From contig NZ_CAUTEG010000003.1 of the NCBI RefSeq assembly GCF_963537195.1, positions 1,890 to 65,889 on the forward strand: DNA of 64,000 bases. Direction: 5' to 3'. Below, piece by piece: positions 3,536-61,567 of the stretch. How positions within the stretch are numbered: position 1 is the first letter of the stretch; every line of letters starts with the position of its first letter. The notes under the pieces are model-generated. The model was not told where the DNA came from. It worked only from the letters and a program-made list of their open reading frames with translations, and ran no database searches. Source of the DNA: Oribacterium sinus (GTDB taxonomy: Bacteria; Bacillota; Clostridia; Lachnospirales; Lachnospiraceae). The position numbers were made by a program, and so were the translations under genes.

Positions 3536-3780
3536 GCTTATCCTTTCTTTTTGAGATGCAATACTGTTGAAATAAACTGCTTTGCAAAGCAAAGTGATTG
3601 ATTAATATACTGCTATAATTTGTACTTCTAGGCTTTATTGTAGCTTGCTCCCCTTGCTTCCACAAGCTTATCTTCCTAAGCTGATTTGTTGCTGGTTGAG
3701 TGTCCTTGTGTAGTTAATCTCCTCCTTAATCTGAAGCTTCGTCTATAGAATCACCCCAAAGCTCCTACTTTTGATTTGAC

Positions 3781-3908
3781 ATCAACATTTGGGAAGGATA
3801 AAATGTTGATGTATCAACATTTTAGAAAGAAAAAATATCCATTCATCAACATTTTAGAAGGTAAAAATATCCGTTTATCAACATTTTAGAATAAAAAACA
3901 TCAAGTCG
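3781..3908. repeat. palindrome plus three 32-bp tandem repeats (ATCAACATTTTAGAA core)
   Basis: ATCAACATTT (3781-3790) and AAATGTTGAT (3801-3810) form an inverted repeat. Direct units start at 3813, 3845 and 3877. Confidence 0.8.
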
Positions 3909-4012
3909 ACAATATTGGGGGAAGATTTCAAGCTTTTTATAGAACAGCCATAGATTTCCCTCACGAAATTTCATTCCAAAATGTGGCTATATTTGCAAAA
4001 GAGGAGCAAAGA

Positions 4013-5314
4013 ATGTTAAAGAGAAAAGTGATGAGTCAATTGTGGAATTGGAAAAAACAGGAAAAGAAAAAATCTTTATTGGTTCTTGGGGCAAGGCAGG
4101 TGGGAAAGACCTATGCCGTTCAAGCATTTGGGAAATCCGCGTATAAAGAGATGCTGTATATTAATTTCAAAGAAAGCAACTCCGATCGCTCTATTTTCAC
4201 CGGAGATTTAACTGTTGCTTCCATGATTACCGCCATGCGCTTTCGCTATCCCAACTTACAATTTATCCCGGGAGAAATCCTCATTTTCTTAGACGAAATT
4301 CAGGAGTGTCCGGAAGCTATCACTTCTTTAAAATTCTGGACCTTGGATGGGCAGTTCGATATTATCGCCTCCGGTTCCCTCCTTGGCATAGATTACCAAA
4401 GAGCCTCTTCCTATCCGGTAGGATATGTAGAGTATTTGCGAATGTTCGGCTTAGACTTTGAAGAGTTTTTATGGGCAAAGGGTATTCAGGAAGATCTGAT
4501 TTCTGATTTAAAAACTCTCTTTATAAGGAAGACACCGGTAGCCGAAGCTATTCATAATACCATGATGTCCTATTTACGAGAATATCTCGCCCTGGGAGGA
4601 ATGCCCGAAGTCTTGGCAAACTTTATGGAACATCAGGATTTTCGAATCGCAGATCAAATACAAAAAGAGCTTTTGATGGGCTTTCGTTATGATATTGCCC
4701 ACTACGCTCGGTCTGATGAAAAAGTCAAAGCGGAAAAATGCTTTTTATCTTTAGGAAGGCAAGTTCTGGACAAAGAAAATCATAAATTTCAATACAAGGA
4801 AGTGGAAAAAGGAGGAAGGGCACAGAAATTTTATTCCAGCATTGACTGGCTCTTTTCGGCAGATATGGTCTCCCTTTCTAAATTAGTGACAGACGTGCAG
4901 TACGATCTCTCCGACTATGCCAGAGAGGATTTTTTTAGAGCCTACACTACAGATTTATCTTTACTGATTGCCATGAAAGATTTCGGTTTGAAACAGCATA
5001 TTATCGAAAATACCCTCCTGGCCAATACAAAAGGAGGCTTATATGAATGCCTAATAGCGGATATGCTCATCAAAAAAGAACTCCCCCTTTATTTTTACAA
5101 AAACGAAAGTAGTAAAAAAGAAATTGACTTTTTAACACAAAAAGATGGAGAAATTTGGGCTATCGAGGTCAAAAGCGGACAGAGTAGAGCAAATTCTTTA
5201 AACCGGCTGATAAATCAGAAGCATGTTTCCAGAGCTTATAAATTTCATGACGGAAACATTGGCGAAGAAGGAGGCGTTCTATCTATGCCCCTCTATATGG
5301 CGATATTTTTATAA
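4013..5314 (+). CDS. AAA-family ATPase with DUF4143-type C-terminal domain
   Basis: Walker A GARQVGKT and Walker B FLDEIQ, in a COG1373-like architecture. Start refined to the ATG at 4013 after GAGGAG. Confidence 0.85.
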   Translation: MLKRKVMSQLWNWKKQEKKKSLLVLGARQVGKTYAVQAFGKSAYKEMLYINFKESNSDRSIFTGDLTVASMITAMRFRYPNLQFIPGEILIFLDEIQECPEAITSLKFWTLDGQFDIIASGSLLGIDYQRASSYPVGYVEYLRMFGLDFEEFLWAKGIQEDLISDLKTLFIRKTPVAEAIHNTMMSYLREYLALGGMPEVLANFMEHQDFRIADQIQKELLMGFRYDIAHYARSDEKVKAEKCFLSLGRQVLDKENHKFQYKEVEKGGRAQKFYSSIDWLFSADMVSLSKLVTDVQYDLSDYAREDFFRAYTTDLSLLIAMKDFGLKQHIIENTLLANTKGGLYECLIADMLIKKELPLYFYKNESSKKEIDFLTQKDGEIWAIEVKSGQSRANSLNRLINQKHVSRAYKFHDGNIGEEGGVLSMPLYMAIFL

Positions 5315-7059: not shown

Positions 7060-7227
7060 TGCTTCCCCTTTTCCGTTGTCCTTCAACTAATCTGTCTGTC
7101 CATCTCCGCAAGTGTTTCCTTAGGATAACAGAGAAAAACTTCAATGACAAGGAATTCTCCAAAGAATAAAGAGAATTTTAGAAACAAATAGGAGAAACTA
7201 ACGGGGCTATCAAAGGGACTTTCTATA

Positions 7228-11830: not shown

Positions 11831-11880
11831 ACCTATGTTGTTTCAATTATCATTAAGAGGTGAAGCAATAAATTCAGCCA

Positions 11881-12217
11881 GGTTTTCTAAAGGATAGGGA
11901 TGAAATGAGTGGTAATCTAAGCCCGATACTTGCAAAATCTGATGAAGTGAAGAACTGTAAAAATCAATATGTGAAGCGAATAATGCAGTATGGGTCTATA
12001 ATAGGGGCAATCTGAGCCCGTCAGTACTTACTGAAAGCGAGCAAAGCGAAGCTTGAAGTTAGTACTGCTACGAAGGCGAAGTTAGCGGGAGCGTGCCACG
12101 ATTATAGACCCATACTGCATTTGAGCGCATCCTTATGATAAGTACAGTCCTTCAATACATTGGATTAGGCTAGCGAAAGCGTGCCACGAATTTCATCCCT
12201 ATCCTAATTAGAAAACC
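11881..12217. repeat. composite (nested) rod-like hairpin repeat, units A and B
   Basis: Outer arms 11881-11906 and 12190-12217 are complementary. Inner unit 11982-12121 has perfect 21-bp arms. Core boxes GGGGCAATCTGAGCCCG and GTTAGCGGGAGCGTGCC are present. Confidence 0.85.
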
Positions 12218-12223
12218 GTAAAT

Positions 12224-30611: not shown

Positions 30612-30720
30612 GAAAACCTCCTATCAGGATTTTCAATATTCCCCATAATATCATGCTTTCCGCAGGAGATACAAGAAAAGAGCATCTTATCTCTTTACAA
30701 ATTTTATAATTTTTTCTAAG

Positions 30721-30940
30721 GAAGAAAGGGGCTGTAATAAAATGGAAAAGGATAAATAAGTTTTGGAGGCATAGGTCTAGTTGGGGGCACGCTCTCGCTA
30801 ACCTCGCCTCCTAGCAGTACTAACTTCAAGCATCGCCTTGCTCGCTTTCAGTAAGTACTGAGGGGCTCAGATTACCCCCTTTTAGACCTATGCCACCAAA
30901 ACTTGCACCAAAATCCGATTTTATTACAGCCCCTTTCTTC
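30721..30940. repeat. rod-like hairpin repeat, unit C (~220-bp near-perfect palindrome)
   Basis: Outer arms 30721-30743 / 30918-30940 are perfect (23 bp). Second arms 30758-30779 / 30883-30904 have 1 mismatch. Core boxes are in reverse orientation. Confidence 0.9.
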
Positions 30941-31034
30941 CTTTTCCTCTTCTCCCTGTTCTTTTTTCTTCCTTTATGATATATTTAAAAGGTTGCATTT
31001 GTTATATTTTTTAAGACTAATGAAAGGAGGGTTC

Positions 31035-32392: not shown

Positions 32393-33303
32393 TAAAAATC
32401 ATCTTCTTTGATATCGACGGCACTCTTCGTCCCTTTGAAACCGGAATCATTCCGGAGGATAGCAAGGCTGCCGTCAGAAGAGTGCAGGAGGCAGGAGTGC
32501 TTTGTGCCATTGCCACCGGAAGGCACTGGGTGGAAATCTATAATGAAGGCTTGGTGGAGGATATGTATTTCGATGCCTTTGTCACTTTAGACGGAGGCTA
32601 TGACTACATCCTGCATCCGGAAAAGGCAAGACCTGTTTTTCAAAAGCAGGGAGCCAAAAAACCGAAGGATTACCACTTTCTGATTGATGAGGCAGGGCTT
32701 CCCCTGCCTTACTTTGACCCCAAAAACGGAGAGGTACTTTTACAAGAAGCCATCCACGGAGAAATGGTGGAAAATGTCCTTGCTATGGCGGAAGAAGAAA
32801 GCTTCCCTATTCTGTTTTTGGAAGAGAGACGGCTCTACGCCAACTTTGTAAATGACGCCTTGCTGCATTGTCTTTCGGAAATCAAATCCGGAATTCCTCC
32901 CATCCTTCCTTTGTCAGAAGCCAGGAAAAATCCTCTTTTTATGCTGATTCCGGTGCTTAATGAAACACAAGTGAAAGAGCTGGAAAGAAGAATTCCGGAC
33001 TGCCATTTGGTTCGCTGGTCCGACGGTCTATCCTTTGACGTGACCAAAAGAAATATTTCCAAGGTTTCAGGCATAGAAGCTATTTGTAAGGCTTTAGGCA
33101 TTCAAAGAGAAGAATGTGCCGCCATCGGAGACGGCTGGAATGATGTGGAAATGCTCTCCCATGTGGGAATGGGTATCGCCATGGGCAACGCCAAAGAAGA
33201 ATGTAAGGCTGTAGCAAACTACATCACCACCCCAATCCTGGAAGGCGGCCTACCCCAGGCAGTGGACTACATCCTTGAATATAACGAAACGCAGAAGAAG
33301 TGA
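32389..33303 (+). CDS. Cof-type HAD-IIB family hydrolase
   Basis: FFDIDGTL motif I, and GDGWNDVEML motif IV. Confidence 0.88.
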   Translation: MIKIIFFDIDGTLRPFETGIIPEDSKAAVRRVQEAGVLCAIATGRHWVEIYNEGLVEDMYFDAFVTLDGGYDYILHPEKARPVFQKQGAKKPKDYHFLIDEAGLPLPYFDPKNGEVLLQEAIHGEMVENVLAMAEEESFPILFLEERRLYANFVNDALLHCLSEIKSGIPPILPLSEARKNPLFMLIPVLNETQVKELERRIPDCHLVRWSDGLSFDVTKRNISKVSGIEAICKALGIQREECAAIGDGWNDVEMLSHVGMGIAMGNAKEECKAVANYITTPILEGGLPQAVDYILEYNETQKK

Positions 33304-33409
33304 TCTTTTCAAAGCGAATATCCATCAGCTTTCGCGCAGTATAGCTTGTATTAAGGGAGACACACTTGCCTCCCCACCTACACGCTAAGCATAAATTTTA
33401 AAAGAAATA

Positions 33410-33623
33410 CAGAAGAAGTGATCTTAGCAAGGCGAGTATCCATCAGCTTTCGAGCAGTATAGCTTGTAATAAGGGGCAATCTGAGCCCGCGGGTTCTTGG
33501 CTTTTGTTTTTTAAAAGCTTAGAACCCCTGCGAGGCGAGGTTAGCGGGAGCGTGCCCCTGTTACAAGCTATACTGCGCGAAAGCGATTTCGGATAATGCT
33601 TACCATTCATCACTTCCTCTGCG
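33410..33623. repeat. rod-like hairpin repeat, unit D
   Basis: Arms 33446-33469 / 33561-33584 (24 bp, 1 mismatch). Outer CAGAAGAAGTGAT / ATCACTTCCTCTG. Forward-orientation core boxes. Confidence 0.85.
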
Positions 33624-35248
33624 TTTCTTTTTTTTTTGCTTTGCTCTGCCTTAGCCTTTTCAGCCACCTCCTTCTTTTTCTTCTCCTCTTTTTCCTTTTT
33701 CTTTTCTTCTTTTTTGATAAAAGCGGATTCTTTATCAATCTTTCCCAGAGAAATCATAAAGTCGGAACGTTTTTCCAGTTCTTTTTTTACATGCTTTAAT
33801 CCGTATTCTTCTATAAGGGTTGGGGTTGTGGAAAATAAATTTCTGCCCAGTCCCAGCTTATCTCCCGGAATTTCTACCCCCATGGCTGCCAAAGTGGTGG
33901 GGAAGTCGTCAAAGGTACTGTATTCCCGATATTTCTTTTCTTCCACGGTGGGAACGGCATTGAGATAGGTGGTGAAAACCTTTCTTTGATAGCTTTTTTC
34001 CACACCATTACAGAAATCGTGATCCATGGTGGGGTGATCCCCGGAAATGACTATGGTTGTATTTTCATAAAAAGGCTGCTGCTGTACCCAGTGAACAAAG
34101 TTGGATACCTGCCGGGATGTACATTGGTACACATCCGCATACTGATTTTTCGGGTGCTTTCTTTCGCAAAGTCTGCACACATAACCATCCGGAAAATGAG
34201 TATCCACTGTAAGCAAGGTCAGATTAAAGGGTTGTTCCGCCTTCCCCATATTTTCCAATTCTTCCTTCGCGTACAGAAAAAGCTTCTCATCCTCAAAGCC
34301 CCAGTTCACCCAATAGTTTCTGGGAAATTTGCCTTTTCTCTTCCAATAGGAAAAATCCTCCACGGCTACGTTTCCATGATCCTCCATGAAAAGCTCTCTT
34401 CCGCCAAAATAGCCTACAGAGCCTAAGAGGAATTTTTGATTGTAGCCTTCCTCTTCCAGAATATCGCCCAGGGCGGTTACAGAAGGGAAAAAATGCTTTT
34501 GGCTATCCATGGAATTTTGCTCAATGGAGATTTTCAAAGGAAGACCGGTGCTCTCTCCGAAAATCGCTCCCATGGTCCAGGTGGCTCCGGGAAGGGCAAT
34601 GCCCCCATTCCTTTTTTCTCCCTCTCCGGCAAAGTCCTCTCCCTCTTCGCCCAAAGCCATCAATTCGGGCAGAAGATTTTCCGGAAAATCTCCGCCGTGC
34701 TCCTTGTCCATAAAGGTAAGCTCCGTGGATTCCATGTAAATATAGATAAGATTTCTTTTCTTCTCCGGAAATTTCAAGTCCACATTTTTTGGATCCACAT
34801 AATGCTCTTCAATAAACTTGGAGGATTGAAATTGGGAGCTTAAAAAGGAACCAAGAGATATCCCGTCCCAAGCTTCTGCAATGGTCACTGCCACAAAGAA
34901 AATGCTGAAAAAACCGCATAGAGGCAGGAAGGCCTTCTTGATTTTGGGAAGGAAAATTCGTATCTTTTGCTTTTGGTAGAAAAAATAATAAAATACAGAG
35001 AGGGATAGCCATAAAAGAATGGCCGGGGCCAAGGCTGTGGTAATAAAAAGCTGTACCAGATGTCCGTTGGCTCCACCCATAGGAGCGAAAACATGAAAGA
35101 GAATCTCATCTACCGTAAGCTCTTCCCAGTTGCTGACCAAAAAAAGATAGGACAAGCGAAACAGGCAGCATAATCCCAGCAGAAATAATAAAAGATAGGG
35201 AAGGAGCACTTTCCCTATTGATTTTTTGTTGTCCTTATTTTGTTCCAT
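33443..35248 (-). CDS. LTA synthase family protein (sulfatase domain)
   Basis: N-terminal TM bundle plus a sulfatase domain (ESTELTF, GDHP). The last ~60 codons run through repeat unit D. Confidence 0.85.
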   Translation of the reverse strand: MEQNKDNKKSIGKVLLPYLLLFLLGLCCLFRLSYLFLVSNWEELTVDEILFHVFAPMGGANGHLVQLFITTALAPAILLWLSLSVFYYFFYQKQKIRIFLPKIKKAFLPLCGFFSIFFVAVTIAEAWDGISLGSFLSSQFQSSKFIEEHYVDPKNVDLKFPEKKRNLIYIYMESTELTFMDKEHGGDFPENLLPELMALGEEGEDFAGEGEKRNGGIALPGATWTMGAIFGESTGLPLKISIEQNSMDSQKHFFPSVTALGDILEEEGYNQKFLLGSVGYFGGRELFMEDHGNVAVEDFSYWKRKGKFPRNYWVNWGFEDEKLFLYAKEELENMGKAEQPFNLTLLTVDTHFPDGYVCRLCERKHPKNQYADVYQCTSRQVSNFVHWVQQQPFYENTTIVISGDHPTMDHDFCNGVEKSYQRKVFTTYLNAVPTVEEKKYREYSTFDDFPTTLAAMGVEIPGDKLGLGRNLFSTTPTLIEEYGLKHVKKELEKRSDFMISLGKIDKESAFIKKEEKKKEKEEKKKKEVAEKAKAEQSKKKRNAEEVMNGKHYPKSLSRSIACNRGTLPLTSPRRGSKLLKNKSQEPAGSDCPLLQAILLES

Positions 35249-40226: not shown

Positions 40227-41150
40227 ATGGACTTAAAGAAATTAGAACATATCCTAAGAATTGCAGAGGAAAAAAATATCAGCAGGGCGGCAGAACGACT
40301 TTTTATCTCCCAGCCGGCTTTGAATTTACAGCTTTTAAATCTGGAGCGGGAGCTGGGCACAAAGCTCTTTGTCCGTAAGGGAAATGAATGTAGTGTCACG
40401 GAGGCGGGCAGAATCTATGTGGAAACCGCCCGGAAAATGATGAATATGAAGAAGGACTGCTATGCCAAGATTGCAGAGCTAAGCCAGCTTCATAACGAAG
40501 AAATCGCCATCGGAGCCTCAGGACTTCAGGGAGACTATATGATGTGCTACATTTTCCAGAAATTCCATGAATACCATCCCAATGTAAAATTACAATTTAC
40601 CTCTATGAAGGGCTTAAAAGCACAGGAATTGGTGAAAAACGGCACCATTGATTTAGGCATTGTCCTCATGGGAGACAAGCAAAGCTATCGTATGGAATAT
40701 AAGCTGTTGGGAAAAGTCGAACTGCTTTTAGCCATTGCCAAAAATCATCCTTTGTTAGAGGTTTTGGAAGAAGAGGGCGAAATTACTGAAATTGATTTGG
40801 CTAAGCTTTCCGAGCTTCCCTTTGTGCTGGCACCCAAGGATTCTACAGAACGATCCGTTGCGGAAATGGCCTTCGAAGATGCAGGCATTGACCCCTATGT
40901 GCCTATGGATGTGGAAGGAATCCATTACCAGATGGCTCTGGTGGAATCTTCGGATTACTGCTCCTTTATCAGCAGTAATAACCGCGCCCATGTGCCGGAC
41001 AGTATCCGCCTGATTCCCTGTAAGACACATCCGAAAATGAATGCGGTGGCAGTATATCGGAAAGATAAGCCCTTGACGAAGGCCCTGGTGGAGCTGATTT
41101 CCCTAGCGGAGGAATATTGGGCTTCCTTCTCCGAGGAAGAGTCATTCTAA
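40227..41150 (+). CDS. LysR family transcriptional regulator
   Basis: N-terminal HTH (NISRAAERLFISQPALNLQLLNLE) plus a substrate-binding domain. Confidence 0.92.
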   Translation: MDLKKLEHILRIAEEKNISRAAERLFISQPALNLQLLNLERELGTKLFVRKGNECSVTEAGRIYVETARKMMNMKKDCYAKIAELSQLHNEEIAIGASGLQGDYMMCYIFQKFHEYHPNVKLQFTSMKGLKAQELVKNGTIDLGIVLMGDKQSYRMEYKLLGKVELLLAIAKNHPLLEVLEEEGEITEIDLAKLSELPFVLAPKDSTERSVAEMAFEDAGIDPYVPMDVEGIHYQMALVESSDYCSFISSNNRAHVPDSIRLIPCKTHPKMNAVAVYRKDKPLTKALVELISLAEEYWASFSEEESF

Positions 41151-41876
41151 CTATCGCTCTACCCTTCCTGCTATGGAAAGAATATGCACTTCCTCCGCTC
41201 CGGCTTCTAGGAGCTTTCTGCTACAGGCCTCCATGGTGGCTCCTGTGGTAAAGATATCGTCCACCAAAAGCACCCGTTTTAGGTCGAAGGGTAATGCTTC
41301 ACAGTGAATGGCTTCCAAGAGATTTAATAAACGTTCCTCCGGGCTACAGTCCTTTAAGGCTTTGGTTTTCTTTACTCTCTGCAAATACTCTGAAGCCAGA
41401 GGGATGCCGCAGACCTTTGCCAGACTTTCTCCAATGACCTCTGCCTGGTTATAGCCTCTTTCCCTTCTTCTGTTGGGATGAACCGGCACAGGAATAATAG
41501 CCTGAATTCCCAATTCTTTTATCTTTGCCCCAAAAACCTCTCCTGCCTTTTTGCCAAAAAAGATGCCCTTATCCCTTCTGCCCTTATACTTTAGAAGCAC
41601 TAAAGCATCCTCCACTTCCTCCGTCAGCTCATACAGCATCATACCGGTAGAAAAGGAAAAGCCGTGTCTTTTACAGTTTCCGCAGTACTCCTCCGTTTCC
41701 AATAAAATTCCCCTGCCACATTTTTTACAGATTGGCTCCTCCATGATTTTCTCGTAAGCCTTGCAGGCAGGGCAGATTTCTTCTTTTCCGCTTTCCGTAA
41801 GCTCATCACAAAGGATGCAGCGAGGAGGAAAGAGGGCATTGATGATGGCTTCTTTCCAGTCTTCCTTTTTTCTCAT
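41151..41876 (-). CDS. comFC: ComF family protein (PRTase domain, zinc-finger N-terminus)
   Basis: CxxC pairs at the N-terminus. VLLVDDIFTTGAT is a PRPP-binding loop. Confidence 0.85.
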   Translation of the reverse strand: MRKKEDWKEAIINALFPPRCILCDELTESGKEEICPACKAYEKIMEEPICKKCGRGILLETEEYCGNCKRHGFSFSTGMMLYELTEEVEDALVLLKYKGRRDKGIFFGKKAGEVFGAKIKELGIQAIIPVPVHPNRRRERGYNQAEVIGESLAKVCGIPLASEYLQRVKKTKALKDCSPEERLLNLLEAIHCEALPFDLKRVLLVDDIFTTGATMEACSRKLLEAGAEEVHILSIAGRVER

Positions 41877-47149: not shown

Positions 47150-47197
47150 TTCAATATAATAGAAAGTAGGGAAATCCCTACTTTCTATTATATTGAA
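47150..47197. promoter_or_regulatory. perfect 22-bp-arm palindrome (operator or terminator)
   Basis: TTCAATATAATAGAAAGTAGGG-AAAT-CCCTACTTTCTATTATATTGAA, between the NUDIX stop and the AbrB-PIN start. Confidence 0.7.
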
Positions 47198-48375: not shown

Positions 48376-49275
48376 ATGGCAAAGCTTGTAGATTCCAAAG
48401 AGACCATTGCGGTATTGCAAAGGACGAACTTCCAGTTCAAGAAGCAATTCGGTCAGAATTTTTTAATTGATGCATCCGTATTGGATCATATTATTTCTCA
48501 TGCCAAGATTCAGAAAGAGGATTTGGTGATTGAGATCGGTCCCGGAATCGGAACCTTAACGGAATCCCTTTGTGAGCATGCAGGACAGGTGATTGCCATT
48601 GAAATTGATGATAAGCTGATTCCTATTTTAGAGGAGAATCTTGCCGGCAAGGAGAATTTCCGCCTCCTACATCAGGATGTTTTGAAGGTGGACTTTACGG
48701 AGCTACTAAAGGAGTATCCAAGCTTTTCCTCCGTTAAGGTTGTGGCGAATCTTCCCTATTATATTACCACCCCCATTTTACTCTCCTTGCTGGAAAAGAA
48801 ACTTCCCCTAAGCTCCATCACCGTCATGGTACAAAAGGAGGTGGCGGAGAGAATGCAGGCTGGTCCCGGTACCAAGGACTACGGCGCTTTATCTCTTGCG
48901 GTGCAGTACTATAGTAAGCCGGAGATTGTGCAGGAGGTTCCCCCTCACTGCTTTATTCCTCGTCCAAAGGTAAGCTCTATGGTGATTCACCTCTCCATTT
49001 ACAAGGAATCCCCTGTCGAATGTGAAAATCCGGAGTATCTCTTTAAGACCATTAAGGCTTCCTTTATGCAAAGACGGAAGACTTTGGTGAACGCCCTGTC
49101 CGCCGGTCTTTCCCTGGATAAGGAAGTAATTAAAAGCGTACTCTCCGCCCTTTCCTATCCGGAAAATGTAAGAGGAGAGACTCTTAGCTTGGATGAGTTT
49201 GCGGAAATCAGTGATAACCTGGACCCGGAGTGGAGGGAAAAACAAAAGTCCGTATTTTGCAGGTTTTGCGAGTAA
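48376..49275 (+). CDS. rsmA: 16S rRNA (adenine1518/1519-N6)-dimethyltransferase
   Basis: KKQFGQNFL, EIGPGIGTLT and NLPYYITTPIL motifs. Start refined to MAKLVDSK. Confidence 0.93.
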   Translation: MAKLVDSKETIAVLQRTNFQFKKQFGQNFLIDASVLDHIISHAKIQKEDLVIEIGPGIGTLTESLCEHAGQVIAIEIDDKLIPILEENLAGKENFRLLHQDVLKVDFTELLKEYPSFSSVKVVANLPYYITTPILLSLLEKKLPLSSITVMVQKEVAERMQAGPGTKDYGALSLAVQYYSKPEIVQEVPPHCFIPRPKVSSMVIHLSIYKESPVECENPEYLFKTIKASFMQRRKTLVNALSAGLSLDKEVIKSVLSALSYPENVRGETLSLDEFAEISDNLDPEWREKQKSVFCRFCE

Positions 49276-49280
49276 GTAAG

Positions 49281-49661
49281 AAGGAGCTATAAAATCAAAA
49301 AAATTTTCTAAGCAATATAGGTCTGAATTGGGGCATGCTCTCGCTAGCCTCGCCTTCGCAGTACAGGACTGTAGAATGATAAAAGGCTACGCTTCGAAGC
49401 TGTATGGATATGAAATCGGGCACGCTCCCGCTAACCTCGCCACGTAGCGGATACTAAGCGAAAAACACAGTACCTGTGTTTTCGCAAGTACCGACGGGCT
49501 CAGATTGCCCTTATTATAGCCCCACACTGTATCATTCGATTCAATTATTGATTTTACAGTCCTTCACTTCGCCGGCCTTTCGCAAGTATCAGGCTCAGAC
49601 TACCCCATATTCAGACCTATATTGCCGAAAATTCTTTACTATTTTGATTTTACAGCTCCTT
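49281..49661. repeat. composite (nested) rod-like hairpin repeat, units E and F
   Basis: Outer arms 49281-49300 / 49642-49661 (1 mismatch). Second arms 49312-49328 / 49609-49625 are perfect. The inner core with its flanks spans 49401-49533. Confidence 0.85.
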
Positions 49662-49704
49662 TTTTCATCCTACCCATTCAAAATAGTTTTTCGCAAAGAG
49701 ATAT

Positions 49705-49915
49705 AAAAGGGGTTGTAAAACAAAAGAACAGCGTATATGCATAATAGGTCTGAAAGCGGGGTAATCTGAGCCCGCGGGTACTTGCGAAAAACAAATGTAA
49801 TGCTGTTTTTCGCTTAGTACCCCTGCGATGGCGAAGTTAGCGAGAGCGTGCTCCGGTTTTAGACCTATTAATGCATATACGAAAGCTTGACTATTTTGAT
49901 TTTCACAGCCCTTTT
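49705..49915. repeat. rod-like hairpin repeat, unit H
   Basis: Arms 49732-49751 / 49861-49881. Outer imperfect arms 49705-49725 / 49894-49915. Forward-orientation core boxes. Confidence 0.85.
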
Positions 49916-49919
49916 AGAT

Positions 49920-52412
49920 CTACTTCTTCAAATATCCGTAAAAAGCATTATGCACCTTCTCATATCTGGCGATAGCTTCTTCTCTACTGATGTTTCTGGG
50001 TATGCTGCTTCCTCCTAGGGTATATACCGTAATAAAGCTATTGTTGTAGCCGCTGATTAACTCCCATTGATCCTCCATACGAATCATCAGAGGATAGCCC
50101 TTGCCCACATAGTAGAGGGCAGCGTGCAGATCCATACCATAAAGATTTAGAAGCACGCCGTTATCATAGTCCATAGCTCTTCGAAGCTCCGGGATTTGGG
50201 AAACAAAATTGCTGATTGCCTCTTCCTGAATCTTCAGGTTAGCGGTATTGGGACGGTCTGTTCTATTCCAAACAATCCGCTCCTTCTGATCCACCACATA
50301 ACCGAACTGGTCATAAATCTTCTTATAGGCCGCCTCCATGGTGGAGAACTCTCCCTGATAATGCCCCAGGCTATAGGCGGAGAAAAGTATATTCTCTTCC
50401 TTGGTTTCTCCCGGAAGCTCAATAGAGCCTGCCTTTTCAATAGAGAACTTTTCCGGGTAATGCAGACTAAACTGGCTAACCGCCTTACCTACCATGGGAA
50501 GGTACTGCAGTTTTCCGATATTTCCCAGAACCTTGGATTCCAAGGCAATCTTTCTTTCATCTTTGATTTCTTTGTTGGAAAGCAAACTGTCCTTCCCCAC
50601 ATACTGATATTCCCCGTCCTGCAGCTGGTATTCATCAAATCGAAGCTGATTTCCTTCCAGACTGAAATTTGCAAAATACAGGCCATCCTTTTTGTAGGAA
50701 AGCTTGGTTTTCATGTCTTCCCCAACTATGCGAATCTCCGATACCGGCACTTCTCCCTGAGGATTCCAAATCTGATCCTTATCACTATCCTGTAAGCCGT
50801 AGAGGAAATCCTCCCCCAGAAAGCCGATTACCTTCAGTCGTTTTCCATCTTCGGAAATGCTCAAATTCTTATCTCCGTGGAGATTTCTAAAGGCAATTTC
50901 TCTGTGCAATTCTCCGTCATTGTTCTTTTCTCCGTAAGCAATAAATTGCTTACTGCTACTGGAGGCAAAATCATTTTCCGAAAGTCCGGTAGCCAGCGTA
51001 ATGACCTCGAAGCTGTTGGTGTCCACCCCATAGATACTGCCGGCAAAGAAAATGTAGAACATCCTATTGTCCGCATAGTAGGAAAGATTTTGAATATTTT
51101 CCTCCAGCTTTTCCTTACTGGCCTTTAGAGGCAGGAAGAAATTCTCCACCACCGTATTTTCCGAATTGTCATAGGTATAAAAGACAATGCCGGTATAGCC
51201 CTCGTGTCGACCTCTTCGAATATAGCCGTATACCAGAAAATCCACATCCCCGTTGGTGTCCACACTCAAAATATGAATGCCGTGGGTAAAGCTCTCCTTC
51301 TCCACCGACTTCTCCCCCTCGTAATAGGAGAAAATCCGGTTCATATTGCCCTTTCCCTCCCCGTCGGCACGGTAAAGGGTATTCTTATCGGTAAAGGCAT
51401 AGAAATTTTTAGTAGCGGATTGCAGGGCCTCAATATCGCTCTTTTCCCCCACACCCAGTAAAATCTTTTTATCCTTGTAACGATAATTCTGTCCGTCAAA
51501 AAGCTCCTTGGTTCTTCGGTCAAAGTCCATCAGGAAAATTCTTTGGGGATCATATCGCATCACATAGTTATCTTCATTAAAGAAACGGTGCACATTACCG
51601 TCCTGATCCGTGGCTCTGGAGGCATACTGGATTTGCACTAATGCCATGGTACCGTCCAGCTCCTTCAAACGAATCTCCGGCTCCCCGTCCATTTCCATGC
51701 CGCTGTCTCCCCAGGTTATCTGCTGGAAGGAGGAATGCAGATTCACATGGGCAAGAGAACTGTTATCCATGGTATCATCACTTTCCAGATAAGTGCTAAG
51801 GCTCTTGGCCTCCGATTTGGAAAAGCTCTTTCTGGTAAAATCCTCCGCAAGACTCAGAACTTCCTGTCCCATATCCTCCTTCCCCAGTAAAACGCGGGTA
51901 TAGTAATAGACGCTGCTTTCTCCCAGGTCCAGTCGTAGACGAAGAAGGTACTCCTTTCCTTCCTTCATCAAGTTTTGGATAGGAAGGATAATGTGTACCC
52001 TTCCCCCTTCCTCCTGTAAGCTTCCTTCCTGGTCCTTTTCCAAAAGCTCCGTCCCATCCAGGGAACGAATATCATAATGCACAGACTTAGGGGCGGACTT
52101 TCCCTCCTCCAAAATCAACTCACACTGCCGGTTTTCCGGAAGTAAGGTCAGGCTGTCCCGCACAAAGACATCATCCATTTCCTGCAAATAGCCGTAGAGA
52201 GGATTGATTTCTTTTCCGGAGGAAAGCACATGAAGCACCGGTAATTTGCTTTTTCCCATGTTGGCATAAATTCTATTGTTTTGATCCATGGAACGATAAG
52301 AATGGAAGAAATAAAAAAGCAGAGCGACAAAAAAAATGCCGCCCAATACCAAAGCTCTGCTTCTTCTTTTATTCCAAAACTTCTGTTTACTTTCGCCTAG
52401 TCGTTTTAACAA
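49920..52412 (-). CDS. large membrane-anchored hypothetical protein (830 aa)
   Basis: One N-terminal TM segment and a long extracytoplasmic region. No family recognised. Confidence 0.7.
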   Translation of the reverse strand: MLKRLGESKQKFWNKRRSRALVLGGIFFVALLFYFFHSYRSMDQNNRIYANMGKSKLPVLHVLSSGKEINPLYGYLQEMDDVFVRDSLTLLPENRQCELILEEGKSAPKSVHYDIRSLDGTELLEKDQEGSLQEEGGRVHIILPIQNLMKEGKEYLLRLRLDLGESSVYYYTRVLLGKEDMGQEVLSLAEDFTRKSFSKSEAKSLSTYLESDDTMDNSSLAHVNLHSSFQQITWGDSGMEMDGEPEIRLKELDGTMALVQIQYASRATDQDGNVHRFFNEDNYVMRYDPQRIFLMDFDRRTKELFDGQNYRYKDKKILLGVGEKSDIEALQSATKNFYAFTDKNTLYRADGEGKGNMNRIFSYYEGEKSVEKESFTHGIHILSVDTNGDVDFLVYGYIRRGRHEGYTGIVFYTYDNSENTVVENFFLPLKASKEKLEENIQNLSYYADNRMFYIFFAGSIYGVDTNSFEVITLATGLSENDFASSSSKQFIAYGEKNNDGELHREIAFRNLHGDKNLSISEDGKRLKVIGFLGEDFLYGLQDSDKDQIWNPQGEVPVSEIRIVGEDMKTKLSYKKDGLYFANFSLEGNQLRFDEYQLQDGEYQYVGKDSLLSNKEIKDERKIALESKVLGNIGKLQYLPMVGKAVSQFSLHYPEKFSIEKAGSIELPGETKEENILFSAYSLGHYQGEFSTMEAAYKKIYDQFGYVVDQKERIVWNRTDRPNTANLKIQEEAISNFVSQIPELRRAMDYDNGVLLNLYGMDLHAALYYVGKGYPLMIRMEDQWELISGYNNSFITVYTLGGSSIPRNISREEAIARYEKVHNAFYGYLKK

Positions 52413-58784: not shown

Positions 58785-60155
58785 CTATTTTCCCATGCAA
58801 AACTTTGCAAAAATCTCATTAATCAAATCCTCGGAAACATCCTCTCCCAGAATTCTTCCTAAGGCACTGTATGCCCCCATTAAATCTATGCTTAAGAAAT
58901 CCTCGGACAATTCCAGACGGATTCCCTCCAAGACCAATTCCAAAGCGGACTTTGCCTCTTCCAATGCTGCAATCTGTCGTTCACTATGAATATAAGTTTC
59001 CGTGGAAAAAGAAAGACTTCCGGTGTAGAAAAGCTCTTCCAGCTTCTGGCCAAGCTCCTCAATACCCCTTCCCTCTTTGGCAGAAATAGGAATCACAGGA
59101 AAACCGGTAGCCTTTTCCAGCTCTTCTTTTTGTAAAATGCTTTCCTTATCCATTTTATTTAGAAGCACCAGGACCTTTTTTCCCTCTAAAAGGGATAAAA
59201 TCTTTCGGTCCTCCTCCTCTAAAGGAAGGCTTCCGTCCAAAACCAAAAGAACGCAGTCCGCCTTTTCAATCCCTTCCTTTGCCCGATTCACACCGATTTC
59301 TTCCACAATATCCTCTGTTTCCCGGATTCCTGCGGTATCCATCAAATGAAGAGAAAGGGAGCCGATACGAATATCCTCCTCCACCGTATCTCTGGTGGTT
59401 CCCGGAATATTGCTTACAATAGCCTTATCCGCCTTAACCAGACAATTTAAAAGAGAAGACTTTCCCGCATTGGGCTTTCCCACAATAACGGTTTGAATTC
59501 CCTCCTTTAAGAGTTTTCCTTCCCTTTGGTGCTTCAAAAGCTCTGAAATTTCAGAGAGAATCCCTTCCACATGGGCTTGACACTGCTCGGAAAAGCCCTC
59601 CAAAGAAATATGCTCCGGATCATCCAAAGCCGCTTCAATAAAGGCGGTATCCTCCAGAATTCTGCTCCGCATTCCCTTGATTTTCTCCTTCAGTGAACCC
59701 TGTAGGAGGGAAAGGGAGGAGCGAATGCTGTCCTCGCTTTTAGCAGAAATTAAATCCGCCACTGCCTCCGCCTGAGAAAGATCGATACGCCCATTTAAAA
59801 AGGCTCGTTTACTGAACTCTCCCGGCTCCGCCGGTCTTGCTCCGGCCTTGAGAGTGGCCTGAAAAACCTTTTGCATCAAAAGGATTCCGCCGTGACAGTT
59901 GATTTCCACAGTATCTTCTCCGGTAAAGGATTTGGGTGCTAAAAAAGTGGAAACCAAAACCTCATCAATTTCCTTTTCCCCGTCAAAAACAAAGCCATAG
60001 CGAATCCGGTGGCTTTCCCTGATATCTAAGGGTTTTCCCCCCTTAGTTCTTAAAATTTTTCCGGCAATTTCCACAGCCTGATTTCCGCTAATCCGGATAA
60101 TGCCGATTCCGCTTTCTACTAATGCGGTGGCAATTCCGCTAATGGTATTTTCCAA
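58785..60155 (-). CDS. mnmE: tRNA modification GTPase
   Basis: GKPNAGKSS G1 motif, DTAG, NKMD, and the C-terminal CMGK. Confidence 0.96.
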   Translation of the reverse strand: MENTISGIATALVESGIGIIRISGNQAVEIAGKILRTKGGKPLDIRESHRIRYGFVFDGEKEIDEVLVSTFLAPKSFTGEDTVEINCHGGILLMQKVFQATLKAGARPAEPGEFSKRAFLNGRIDLSQAEAVADLISAKSEDSIRSSLSLLQGSLKEKIKGMRSRILEDTAFIEAALDDPEHISLEGFSEQCQAHVEGILSEISELLKHQREGKLLKEGIQTVIVGKPNAGKSSLLNCLVKADKAIVSNIPGTTRDTVEEDIRIGSLSLHLMDTAGIRETEDIVEEIGVNRAKEGIEKADCVLLVLDGSLPLEEEDRKILSLLEGKKVLVLLNKMDKESILQKEELEKATGFPVIPISAKEGRGIEELGQKLEELFYTGSLSFSTETYIHSERQIAALEEAKSALELVLEGIRLELSEDFLSIDLMGAYSALGRILGEDVSEDLINEIFAKFCMGK

Positions 60156-60262
60156 ATCCTCACCTCCTCAGCAATTCTGTATTTTACTAAGATTTGTCCT
60201 ACAATGCAATGAAAAGCCTAGGATGGAAATTATAAATAAGCCTAAATAGCTTGTATACAAAT

Positions 60263-60324
60263 AAGCAATAGAGGTCTGAAATCAGGGTAGAACTAACTCT
60301 CCCTATTTCAGACCTCTATTGCTT
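60263..60324. repeat. miniature hairpin related to the rod-like repeat arms
   Basis: Perfect 20-bp arms AAGCAATAGAGGTCTGAAAT / ATTTCAGACCTCTATTGCTT around a 22-nt centre. Confidence 0.8.
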
Positions 60325-60466
60325 AAATATCACACAATTCTTTAACTTACGTTTTATGACTTCTTTTGATGACTTCTTTTGACAACTTCTTCTTACTGAA
60401 TATGTTCCCCTTACCGAATGAATTTACTTAATTCTTCTTATTTCTTCCATGGGGTGCAAGAAAGTC

Positions 60467-61567
60467 TTATTCTTCGCTCTTTTCTTCTCTCTTTTCTTCT
60501 TTCCTGTCCTCTCTTCTCATCCTGTTTCCCTTGTGGCGGAAATCCTTTTGGAACTTTCCTCCATTTTTACAGAAAATCACTACGTGGCGGAAAGGATCCT
60601 CTCCCTCGGATTTTGTGGAAATCTGACTGTCACTTTGCAGTGCGGCATGGATGATTCTTCTCTCATAAGGATTCATTGGCTCCAAATGAACAGATTTCCG
60701 GTTCTTCTTTACCTTGTAGGCAATATTTTTAGCAAGACTTCTTAAAGTCTGCTCTCTTCTCTTACGGTAATCTTCCGTATCCAGCTTTACCCGAAGATAC
60801 TCGTCTCCGTGGTTTTTATTCACCACTAAAGAACAAAGATACTGTAAGGAATCCAGGGTTTGTCCTCTTTTTCCGATAAGGATGCCCATATCCGGTCCTA
60901 TAAGGTTTATGTAAAGCTCATTGCTGCTGTTTCTAAATTCTGTCTGAAGCTCCACTTCCATTTCCATACCCTGAAATACAGAGTTTAAGAAATCTAAAGC
61001 AGCCTTAGTTACCGCTGCAATCTCCTCTTCGGAAAGGGGCGTAAGTTCTCTCTTCTCGGAACTTCTTCCTTCAAAGGACTTTTCCTCTCTCTTTACGGGA
61101 GCGGAAGACATAGGCGCAGGGATAGGATCGTAGCCTCCTCTGCTAAAGCCCTTAAAGCCTTCCTTCTTTTCAAACTTCCTCTCTCTTTTTTCGTCCTTCT
61201 TTTCCAAAGAAGCATTATGGGAAAATGATTTATCCTCCCCGGAAGCCTTTCTTTCTTCCCTTTTCTCAAAACTCTGAGACTTTTCCTCTACAGAAGAGCT
61301 TTCCCTTTTTCCTTCCGCTTCCTTCTTTTCAAATGCCGCTTTCTCTACTGCCGCGGGCTTTTCCGCTGCAACCTTTTCTTTTGCGATTTCCGCTTCATCC
61401 TTTTCCCAGGCTTCGATAATCCAGGGCTTTGCTCCGATACCGAATAAACCGTTGCTTCCCTGTACAATCACATTGTAGGAAATTCTGTCTGAGGTACAAC
61501 CTAAAGAGATGGTTGCCTTTGTAATCGCTTCTTCTACCGTCTTTGCAGAAACTCTAAACTTGTCCAT
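60467..61567 (-). CDS. jag: Jag/KhpB RNA-binding protein (Jag_N, KH, R3H)
   Basis: Jag_N start, KH-like region, and R3H (RRIIHAALQ). Has a long K/E-rich insert and tail. Confidence 0.88.
   Translation of the reverse strand: MDKFRVSAKTVEEAITKATISLGCTSDRISYNVIVQGSNGLFGIGAKPWIIEAWEKDEAEIAKEKVAAEKPAAVEKAAFEKKEAEGKRESSSVEEKSQSFEKREERKASGEDKSFSHNASLEKKDEKRERKFEKKEGFKGFSRGGYDPIPAPMSSAPVKREEKSFEGRSSEKRELTPLSEEEIAAVTKAALDFLNSVFQGMEMEVELQTEFRNSSNELYINLIGPDMGILIGKRGQTLDSLQYLCSLVVNKNHGDEYLRVKLDTEDYRKRREQTLRSLAKNIAYKVKKNRKSVHLEPMNPYERRIIHAALQSDSQISTKSEGEDPFRHVVIFCKNGGKFQKDFRHKGNRMRREDRKEEKREEKSEE

Follow-up and report, generated by a model that had tools for sequence, protein, structure and literature searches.

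The locus considered here lies at 11881-12217 of a 64,000-nucleotide stretch of Oribacterium sinus DNA (contig NZ_CAUTEG010000003.1; hereafter the window) and is a coherent two-level nested hairpin, which we call composite A. Composite A is one member of a high-copy, interspersed repeat family of Oribacterium, which is palindromic, non-coding and apparently undescribed. The unit of this family is a long hairpin whose arms differ among loci yet remain complementary, and which enclose a conserved asymmetric core consisting, in order, of box A (GGGGCAATCTGAGCCCG), an apical hairpin (GTACTT...TTAGTAC) and box B (GGCGAGGTTAGC-GNRA-GCGTGCCCC). An earlier note on the window, made from its letters, had described arms, degenerate boxes, inner termini, perfect inner arms and intact inner boxes at this locus, and all of them are present:

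11881..11943 (+): outer unit, 5' side
11881-11908: locus-specific left arm
11909-11925: degenerate outer box A, GTGGTAATCTAAGCCCG
11926-11943: junction linker x, ATACTTGCAAAATCTGAT, which fits the junction consensus of 34 composites
11944..12158 (+): complete inner unit
11944-11968: inner left terminus, GAAGTGAAGAACTGTAAAAATCAAT, followed by an AAGCGA internal loop and an arm of 21-28 bp
12004-12020: inner box A (perfect match 12005-12020)
12021-12074: type-1 apical hairpin
12075-12097: inner box B, GGCGAAGTTAGCGGGAGCGTGCC (perfect match 12081-12097), followed by the right arm
12143-12158: inner right terminus, TACAGTCCTTCAATAC
12159..12217 (+): outer unit, 3' side, beginning with linker y
12169-12185: degenerate outer box B, GCTAGCGAAAGCGTGCC
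12186-12217: right arm

The outer arms of composite A (11881-11906 and 12190-12217) pair, with a repeat finder returning 11891-11912 and 12184-12205 (22 nt, 91%), and the inner arms (11982-12002 and 12101-12121) pair perfectly and can be extended to 28 nt at 93%. The predicted fold is extreme (-150 kcal/mol, z = -13.1), as is that of a second nest, composite B, at 49271-49671 (-169 kcal/mol, z = -11.5). Over the whole window, box A was matched nine times (1.2 expected) and box B seven times (0.06 expected), and these matches and folds are not due to chance. A profile search of the window with the family returned five intergenic sites (11866-12220; 30663-30943; 33276-33619; 49209-49942; and a weak remnant at 60251-60334) and nowhere else.

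We scanned one genome per bacterial species for exact matches to both boxes. At least 106 loci match this pattern, and all of those listed are from Oribacterium, from about a dozen species, with one locus labelled just "Lachnospiraceae bacterium". Relatives were studied as 8-kb pieces around the repeats, from about a dozen genomes and 786 kb in all, and individual loci are given here by L numbers; loci of O. sinus DSM 17245 and of an uncultured Oribacterium match the window at 93-99% identity. Family copies were collected through their boxes, which inflates apparent box conservation, and an arm-based search, which partly offsets this, found exact boxes in 33 of 38 core-bearing units. Units are 150-230 bp and composites 330-900 bp long, without an open reading frame (ORF) of their own, and ORFs of adjoining genes now and then read into them. 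[quoted passage not shown] A unit with exact boxes is present at 1298-1383 of L107 (IMG/VR contig IMGVR_UViG_3300008514_000024), a viral-classed contig that is possibly an Oribacterium prophage.

The consensus of the unit was built from an alignment of 126 copies. Complete units end in AAGGnnCTGTAAAAATC... and ...GATTTTTACAGnnCCTT, the outermost parts being the termini AAGGnnCTGTAAAAATCAA... and ...TTGATTTTTACAGnnCCTT; inside these lies a conserved AAGCGA/GAGCG internal loop, and then the arm helix (consensus GCAGTATAGGTCTG), whose sequence varies by copy while pairing is kept. About 25 copies have the termini AAGGnnCTGTAAAAATC in common, whereas many others have locus-specific outer arms, and in many copies the arms become unique to the locus more than about 25 nt from the boxes and are still complementary over 45-130 nt. 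Written as RNA (GGGGCA-AUCUGA-GCC, apical hairpin GUACUU...UUAGUAC, GGC-GAGGUUA-GC(GNRA)GC-G-UGCCCC), the core folds into a three-way junction, with an apical hairpin that occurs in three types and a box B mini-hairpin that always carries a GNRA loop (GAGA, GGGA or GAAA). Covariation is strong: standard pairs occupy 93.4% of paired cells, compared with 80.2% in shuffles and 28-41% with partners slid, compensatory cells number 441 vs 126 in shuffles, and double changes are seen at all 18 arm pairs. At two core positions the sole variation on the box A to box B strand is by G-U pairs, in 30 and 27 sequences, and arm mismatches are nearly balanced (G-T 201 vs A-C 154). Unit ends carry A runs and T runs resembling bidirectional terminators; a simple terminator scan is blind to hairpins of unit length.

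Nesting is frequent in the family. Among 130 innermost units, 77 were simple and 53 (41%) nested, the commonest nested form having two box A and two box B (21 cases) and the deepest nest five copies of box A with three of box B; the numbers of the two boxes are unequal in about half of the nested units. Successive copies are spaced by 95-99 nt for box A and by 86-89 nt for box B. The deepest nest can be read as a pair of opposing tandem arrays, and L069 holds such arrays, with 5.1 copies of 95 nt vs 2.9 copies of 89 nt. A single junction type is common to all 34 composites examined. On the left, the host box A runs into the first ~15 nt of the apical stem (GTACTT-NNNN-AAAG) and then through CC.GCGAAGT into the left terminus of the inner unit, GAAGGACTGTA; on the right, TACAGTCCTTCACTTCGCAGG passes directly into box B of the host. 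In 32 of the 34 composites the host apical stem lacks its 3' half, so the inner unit replaces the host apex. Of the earlier proposal of self-nesting at the hairpin apex, the recurrent central nesting thus stands (53/130), but insertion into an intact loop does not. As had been supposed, the internal segments and the termini of units that stand alone are homologous (GAAGGACTGTAgAAATCAAT within nests vs AAAGGAGCTGTAAAAATCAAAAT at chromosomal sites).

The levels of a nest differ in their state of decay. Mean box mismatches rise from 0.2-0.3 at the innermost level, which is limited to two mismatches by construction, to 1.6-1.7 at level 2 and to 2.5 (box A) and 1.7 (box B) at level 3. Since outer boxes are more decayed, new material enters at the centre and the outer levels are older, which suggests growth of the nests from their centre. 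In some nests the levels are nearly the same (inner and outer level arms are nearly identical in L021, and modules are 88-93% identical in L069 and L057), and these point to local duplication; over the family, mean module identity is 0.77 within nests and 0.70 between nests. At L026, L045, L053, L062 and L068, metagenome-assembled contigs end within the nest, and the repeats may break short-read assemblies of Oribacterium.

Composite A has a unique shell, and its inner and outer arms are unrelated to each other, whereas its interior is 85-91% identical to the interiors at the unrelated loci L044, L080, L055 and L020 (L044: interior identity 0.91, outer arms at background). Judged by these identities, composite A is a widespread interior cassette in a unique shell. 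On the choice between local duplication and insertion that the earlier note had posed, some levels in the family are local duplicates, but the interior of composite A matches unrelated loci. The orthologous locus in another species (L026) has two box A copies before the contig end.

The earlier note had also seen a second, homologous nest in opposite orientation, which has the following features (positions of boxes and hairpin refer to the + strand):

49271..49671 (-): composite B, whose outer unit is the canonical shell, with termini AAAAGGAGCTGTAAAATC... and ...GATTTTATAGCTCCTT
49332-49348: outer box B
49419-49435: inner box B
49436-49494: type-2 apical hairpin
49495-49510: inner box A
49590-49605: outer box A

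The box order A, A, B, B does recur on the minus strand, but the inner arms are mismatched: the arm by the inner box A (49511-49545) fails to pair with its counterpart by the inner box B (49385-49418). Nor is the second locus a copy of composite A. The apical hairpins are of different types, and outer-arm identity between the two is at background (0.63-0.67 vs 0.61 for shuffled sequence), by which comparison the two are not copies of one composite. The nest at L023, in the same intergenic region and in opposite orientation, is ~95% identical to composite B throughout. It differs by an additional box-A module of 99 nt, which lies between direct repeats of box A plus TCGGTAC.TG and is the source of the matching arm absent from composite B. 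The "inner unit" of composite B is thus, on alignment with L023, a chimera apparently left by loss of one 99-nt module, and we read composite B as a decayed deeper nest because its inner arms are unmatched and the extra module of L023 supplies the partner. The canonical shell is found at ~25 unrelated loci, 3 of them simple, ~13 two-level and 3 three-level. The occurrence of one two-level shell type at ~13 unrelated loci indicates that whole composites also disperse, and the alternative that the composite is itself the mobilised unit was to that extent partly right.

Comparison of equivalent sites shows what changes in these nests. The flanks of L080 and L093 are 97-99% identical and their arms and boxes agree, but the interior is replaced; the two differ over the stretch from box A to the TAGCG within box B, where one has a simple short apex and the other a linker plus a complete unit. 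L020 and L066 have a common shell and different interiors, and interiors were divergent in 8 of 23 pairs with matching outer arms. Identity of the interior is only weakly correlated with that of the outer arms across 34 composites (r = 0.23), and near-identical interiors occur in unrelated outer shells. Together these comparisons show interiors that appear to have been exchanged among copies as cassettes, with putative breakpoints in the conserved boxes. One arm can also gain or lose a single module, which measures 95-99 nt on the A side and 86-89 nt on the B side: L021 and L081 differ by a 104-nt indel, and composite B and L023 by the 99-nt one. L016 and L101 differ by both arms being shortened in register. 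Whole nests or their apices are also flipped relative to the flanks; at the orthologous site of L018 and L048, box B and the apical hairpin lie in inverted order to each other and there is a further whole unit, also inverted, which suggests flip-flop inversion within the palindrome. Such flips would explain the absence of an orientation bias (21 units sense vs 28 antisense to neighbouring genes). Deletions elsewhere leave a solo box-B half and possibly leave coreless shells (window 60262-60325, L033). Orthologs show 13 compensatory double substitutions where about 1 was expected, and complex reshuffling is seen at sites with 94-99% flank identity. A small ORF beside the L069 nest (3680-3922, -), resembling a HicB antitoxin by eye, is absent at the orthologous site of L011.

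The remaining sites of the window include simple units, remnants and an unoccupied site:

7210..7220: solo terminus, TCAAAGGGACT, where a simple unit was lost between GACT direct repeats
30718..30943 (-): simple unit; box A 30862-30877, box B 30786-30802
33284..33635 (+): simple unit (33410-33635; box A 33474-33489, box B 33540-33556, short type-3 apical hairpin) preceded by an extra tandem left-arm module (33284-33409)
41148..41153: unoccupied site, at which the stop codons of two convergent genes abut
49685..49915 (+): simple unit, head-to-head with composite B; type-2 apical hairpin, box A 49759-49774, box B 49836-49852
60262..60325: coreless shell, its perfect 21-bp arms being of the canonical shell type (TAAGCAATAGAGGTCTGAAAT), with a 22-nt loop and without boxes

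The outermost inverted repeat of the unit at 30718..30943 is perfect over 26 bp, and the unit is kept at the orthologous site in L003 and L089; the sites orthologous to 49685..49915 in L064 and L023 are arranged differently. The left-arm module at 33284-33409 has a 117-nt period, with two copies in the window and in L006 and at least three in the O. sinus loci L029 and L003. At this site a sulfatase-family ORF (33443..35248, -) reads through the whole repeat unit (window 33443-33640), its final ~60 codons being repeat-encoded, and a convergent HAD-hydrolase ORF terminates within the duplicated arm module (33284-33303). A second coreless hairpin with canonical-shell arms lies at about 7770-7830 of L033; the loops are 22-30 nt long (GGAG...CTCC), and such hairpins are shells that are empty or else have lost a core by deletion.

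Comparison of orthologous intergenic regions for empty sites, proposed as a check by the earlier note, gave one unoccupied site and one deletion. At the equivalent of 41148-41153, two other Oribacterium species carry nests at exactly this point (L091 2714-3109 and L045 1-348), whose inner units are ~93% identical and in opposite orientations, and comparison of filled and unoccupied sites at 41151 revealed no target-site duplication. The site at 7210-7220 is a deletion, because its 11 nt are an element terminus and two relatives, L026 and L105, both retain a simple unit there; a reading of the "empty site" at ~7220 as an insertion with inverted flank copying was rejected, since the retained 11 nt are the element's own terminus. 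Three further observations concern the window at large. A perfect 23-bp palindrome at 47150-47197 (TTCAATATAATAGAAAGTAGGGA / TCCCTACTTTCTATTATATTGAA), in an AT-rich stretch (GC 0.36 at 46-48 kb), is unrelated to the family. Three inverted-repeat copies like TAAAATGTTGAT..ATCAACATTTT at 3799-3888, upstream of the ORF 3983..5314, may be operator sites. The genes mnmE and jag adjoin at 58785-61567 and GC skew is negative throughout the window, which suggests that the window is near the replication origin region.

Units lie mainly at gene 3' ends: of 88 that could be scored, 34 were between convergent, 49 between tandem and 5 between divergent genes. No transposase was found among the genes between neighbouring units (ThiI, PrmA, HflX, CysK and a glycosyltransferase-like protein) or among the ten genes adjoining the units of the window, which are housekeeping genes. 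The flanks of ~20 canonical-shell copies showed no consistent direct repeat that would mark a target-site duplication, and no fixed flanking tetranucleotide was evident in the flanks of canonical-shell copies; chromosomal insertion sites have no common target resembling the boxes.

We favour, at about even confidence, a reading of the family as selfish repeats like MITEs, REPINs or BOX elements, whose centre-grown nests are remodelled mainly by homology-driven recombination. Composites arise when a linker and a complete unit take the place of all that lies between the host's two boxes, and remodelling might proceed via ectopic gene conversion and unequal recombination, together with replication slippage or template switching. 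Chromosomal palindromes in E. coli form hairpins that SbcCD cuts and that are repaired in a RecA-dependent manner, with recombination and rearrangement provoked (PMC4245961, PMC3315005), and breakage at the hairpin apex is for that reason a plausible trigger here, with the repeated boxes as likely anchors. Out-of-register conversion, in which the recipient's boxes pair with the donor's outer boxes, would add one level; a pairing shifted on one side only would yield unequal box counts; and templated correction from arm to arm would keep the arms complementary. Several points weigh against this reading. The breakpoints and the recombination itself are inferred from sequence comparison only, and anchors of ~17 nt per box are marginal for RecA-type recombination. 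Recombination leaves unexplained the origin of the first composite junction, the strong conservation of the boxes (inflated by the box-based collection, partly offset by the 33 exact cases of 38) and the colonisation of new chromosomal sites. A uniform junction and growth from the centre outwards would equally be expected of a site-specific enzyme, and 8-kb pieces of about a dozen genomes would miss a single-copy enzyme gene elsewhere.

The three points left unexplained make a dedicated, junction-specific enzyme a serious rival. A HUH/Y1 single-strand transposase or a recombinase acting at box A and box B of the folded strand would insert or exchange units between the boxes and also move units to new sites, in true self-homing. 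Such an enzyme would account for the invariant, asymmetric core with its conserved junction strands, the identical junction in 34/34 composites, the always central growth, the cassette breakpoints exactly at the boxes and the existence of coreless shells; the lack of a target duplication is as expected for HUH or site-specific enzymes, and REPINs have been proposed to be mobilised by a distant single-copy RAYT gene (PMC3116915). However, no candidate gene stands beside any unit examined, the numbers of box A and box B are unequal in about half of the nests, one-arm indels between direct repeats require recombination or slippage anyway, and a box-like common target is lacking at chromosomal insertion sites. 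We regard this enzyme as possible, at well under even confidence. In a bolder proposal, which we consider doubtful, a new kind of mobile DNA would act at the three-way junction of box A and box B, homing recursively into the cores of its own family and so building hairpins within hairpins; the junction would be either read by a hairpin-junction-specific enzyme or itself reactive as single-stranded DNA or RNA. Two other ideas were dropped: an integron attC reading, in that the box B GTTAGCG breaks GTTRRRY (C for a purine) and units stand singly among housekeeping genes, and a Chi-like role of AGCGG in box B in guiding repair from apex breaks, for which its orientation is wrong.

The remaining explanations fit parts of the evidence. 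The GNRA loop in every box B mini-hairpin, the conserved AAGCGA/GAGCG internal loops, the strong covariation, the G-U-only variation at two core positions (30 and 27 sequences) and the terminator-like A/T-run ends, mainly at gene 3' ends, would suit a functional structured RNA, be it a ribozyme, a protein-binding platform, a terminator or a stabiliser, with multi-module rods being selected. A strand-specific RNA function is, however, disfavoured by the lack of an orientation preference (21 sense vs 28 antisense), the orientation flips among relatives, the near balance of G-T and A-C arm mismatches (201 vs 154) and the decay of outer boxes after nesting; depth and content also differ among close relatives and no Rfam family matches, so that we hold a functional RNA to be unlikely. 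The CUGA...GAA of the boxes was also read as a hammerhead or k-turn, which was rejected because the core positions misfit, and Rfam agrees. Still less probable, in our estimate, is pure local duplication, in which each composite formed in place on both arms with no exchange among loci. The near-identical arms of L021, the 88-93% identical modules of L069 and L057 and the tandem arrays on both arms of L069 favour it locally, yet it is contradicted at composite A, with unrelated arms and an interior shared at 85-91% with four unrelated loci, by module identity only slightly higher within than between nests (0.77 vs 0.70), and by whole-interior replacement at orthologous sites.

Small interspersed bacterial repeats are widely known, and their mode of multiplication is for the most part unsolved. 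In this family the layers preserve a record of its history, older units outside and newer inside; its boxes provide conserved landmarks at every breakpoint; and it changes between genomes with 95-99% identical flanks. Layers, landmarks and fast change together make it a practical system for telling a dedicated enzyme from the cell's own handling of palindromes. Five sites in the 64-kb window would extrapolate to hundreds of palindromes of 200-900 bp, and how a chromosome tolerates them is a question in itself. The repeats also alter the predicted 3' ends of neighbouring genes.

Among known systems, the family is like REPIN, REP and BIME sequences in consisting of non-coding, extragenic, high-copy hairpin repeats in a narrow lineage, with no target duplication. 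REPINs are doublets, ~100 nt long, of short REP palindromes and are linked to a RAYT gene; they form hairpins without target duplication and, as this family also does, occasional higher-order arrangements, among them rare insertions into or next to other REPINs (Bertels and Rainey 2011, PMC3116915). In contrast, the units here are 150-230 nt long with an asymmetric conserved core, their arms are plain complementary strands while box A and box B are not inverted copies, and nesting is the rule rather than the exception (41%), reaching five levels with one fixed junction. Pneumococcal BOX elements have the form boxA-boxB(n)-boxC, with outer modules that fold and a variable number of boxB attributed to slippage or unequal crossover (Croucher et al. 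2011, PMC3049150). The likeness extends to modular interspersed repeats in a Gram-positive oral or nasopharyngeal host, an internal module number varying among strains and an uncertain mobilising enzyme; the architecture sets the two apart, since the boxB array is one-directional and central, whereas here the two arms receive modules symmetrically and every level forms a complete unit that has termini of its own, a hairpin of hairpins. Classical MITEs such as Correia and ERIC (PMC3049150) are likewise small, non-coding, hairpin-forming and intergenic, often near gene 3' ends, and one subfamily here has conserved termini. Unlike them, the present family shows no target-site duplication, many copies have locus-specific outer arms, and no parent insertion sequence was identified among the genes adjoining units. 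IS200/IS605-derived elements have different subterminal hairpins at their two ends and insert 3' of a fixed short target; the element here is one continuous palindrome.

Two more distant systems resemble the family in architecture. Foldback (FB) elements of Drosophila have long inverted arms of tandem sub-repeats, unequal in number per arm, as in the unequal arm arrays of L069; being eukaryotic, unrelated in sequence and much larger, they are comparable in architecture only. Twintrons, introns nested in introns, are self-splicing RNAs with known catalytic cores, and share recursive nesting at a defined position of their own kind; there is no sign of splicing or of an RNA intermediate here. What distinguishes the Oribacterium family from REPINs, BOX elements and MITEs is the recursive nesting at one fixed junction, with growth from the centre, and a conserved asymmetric three-way-junction core held within locus-specific arms.

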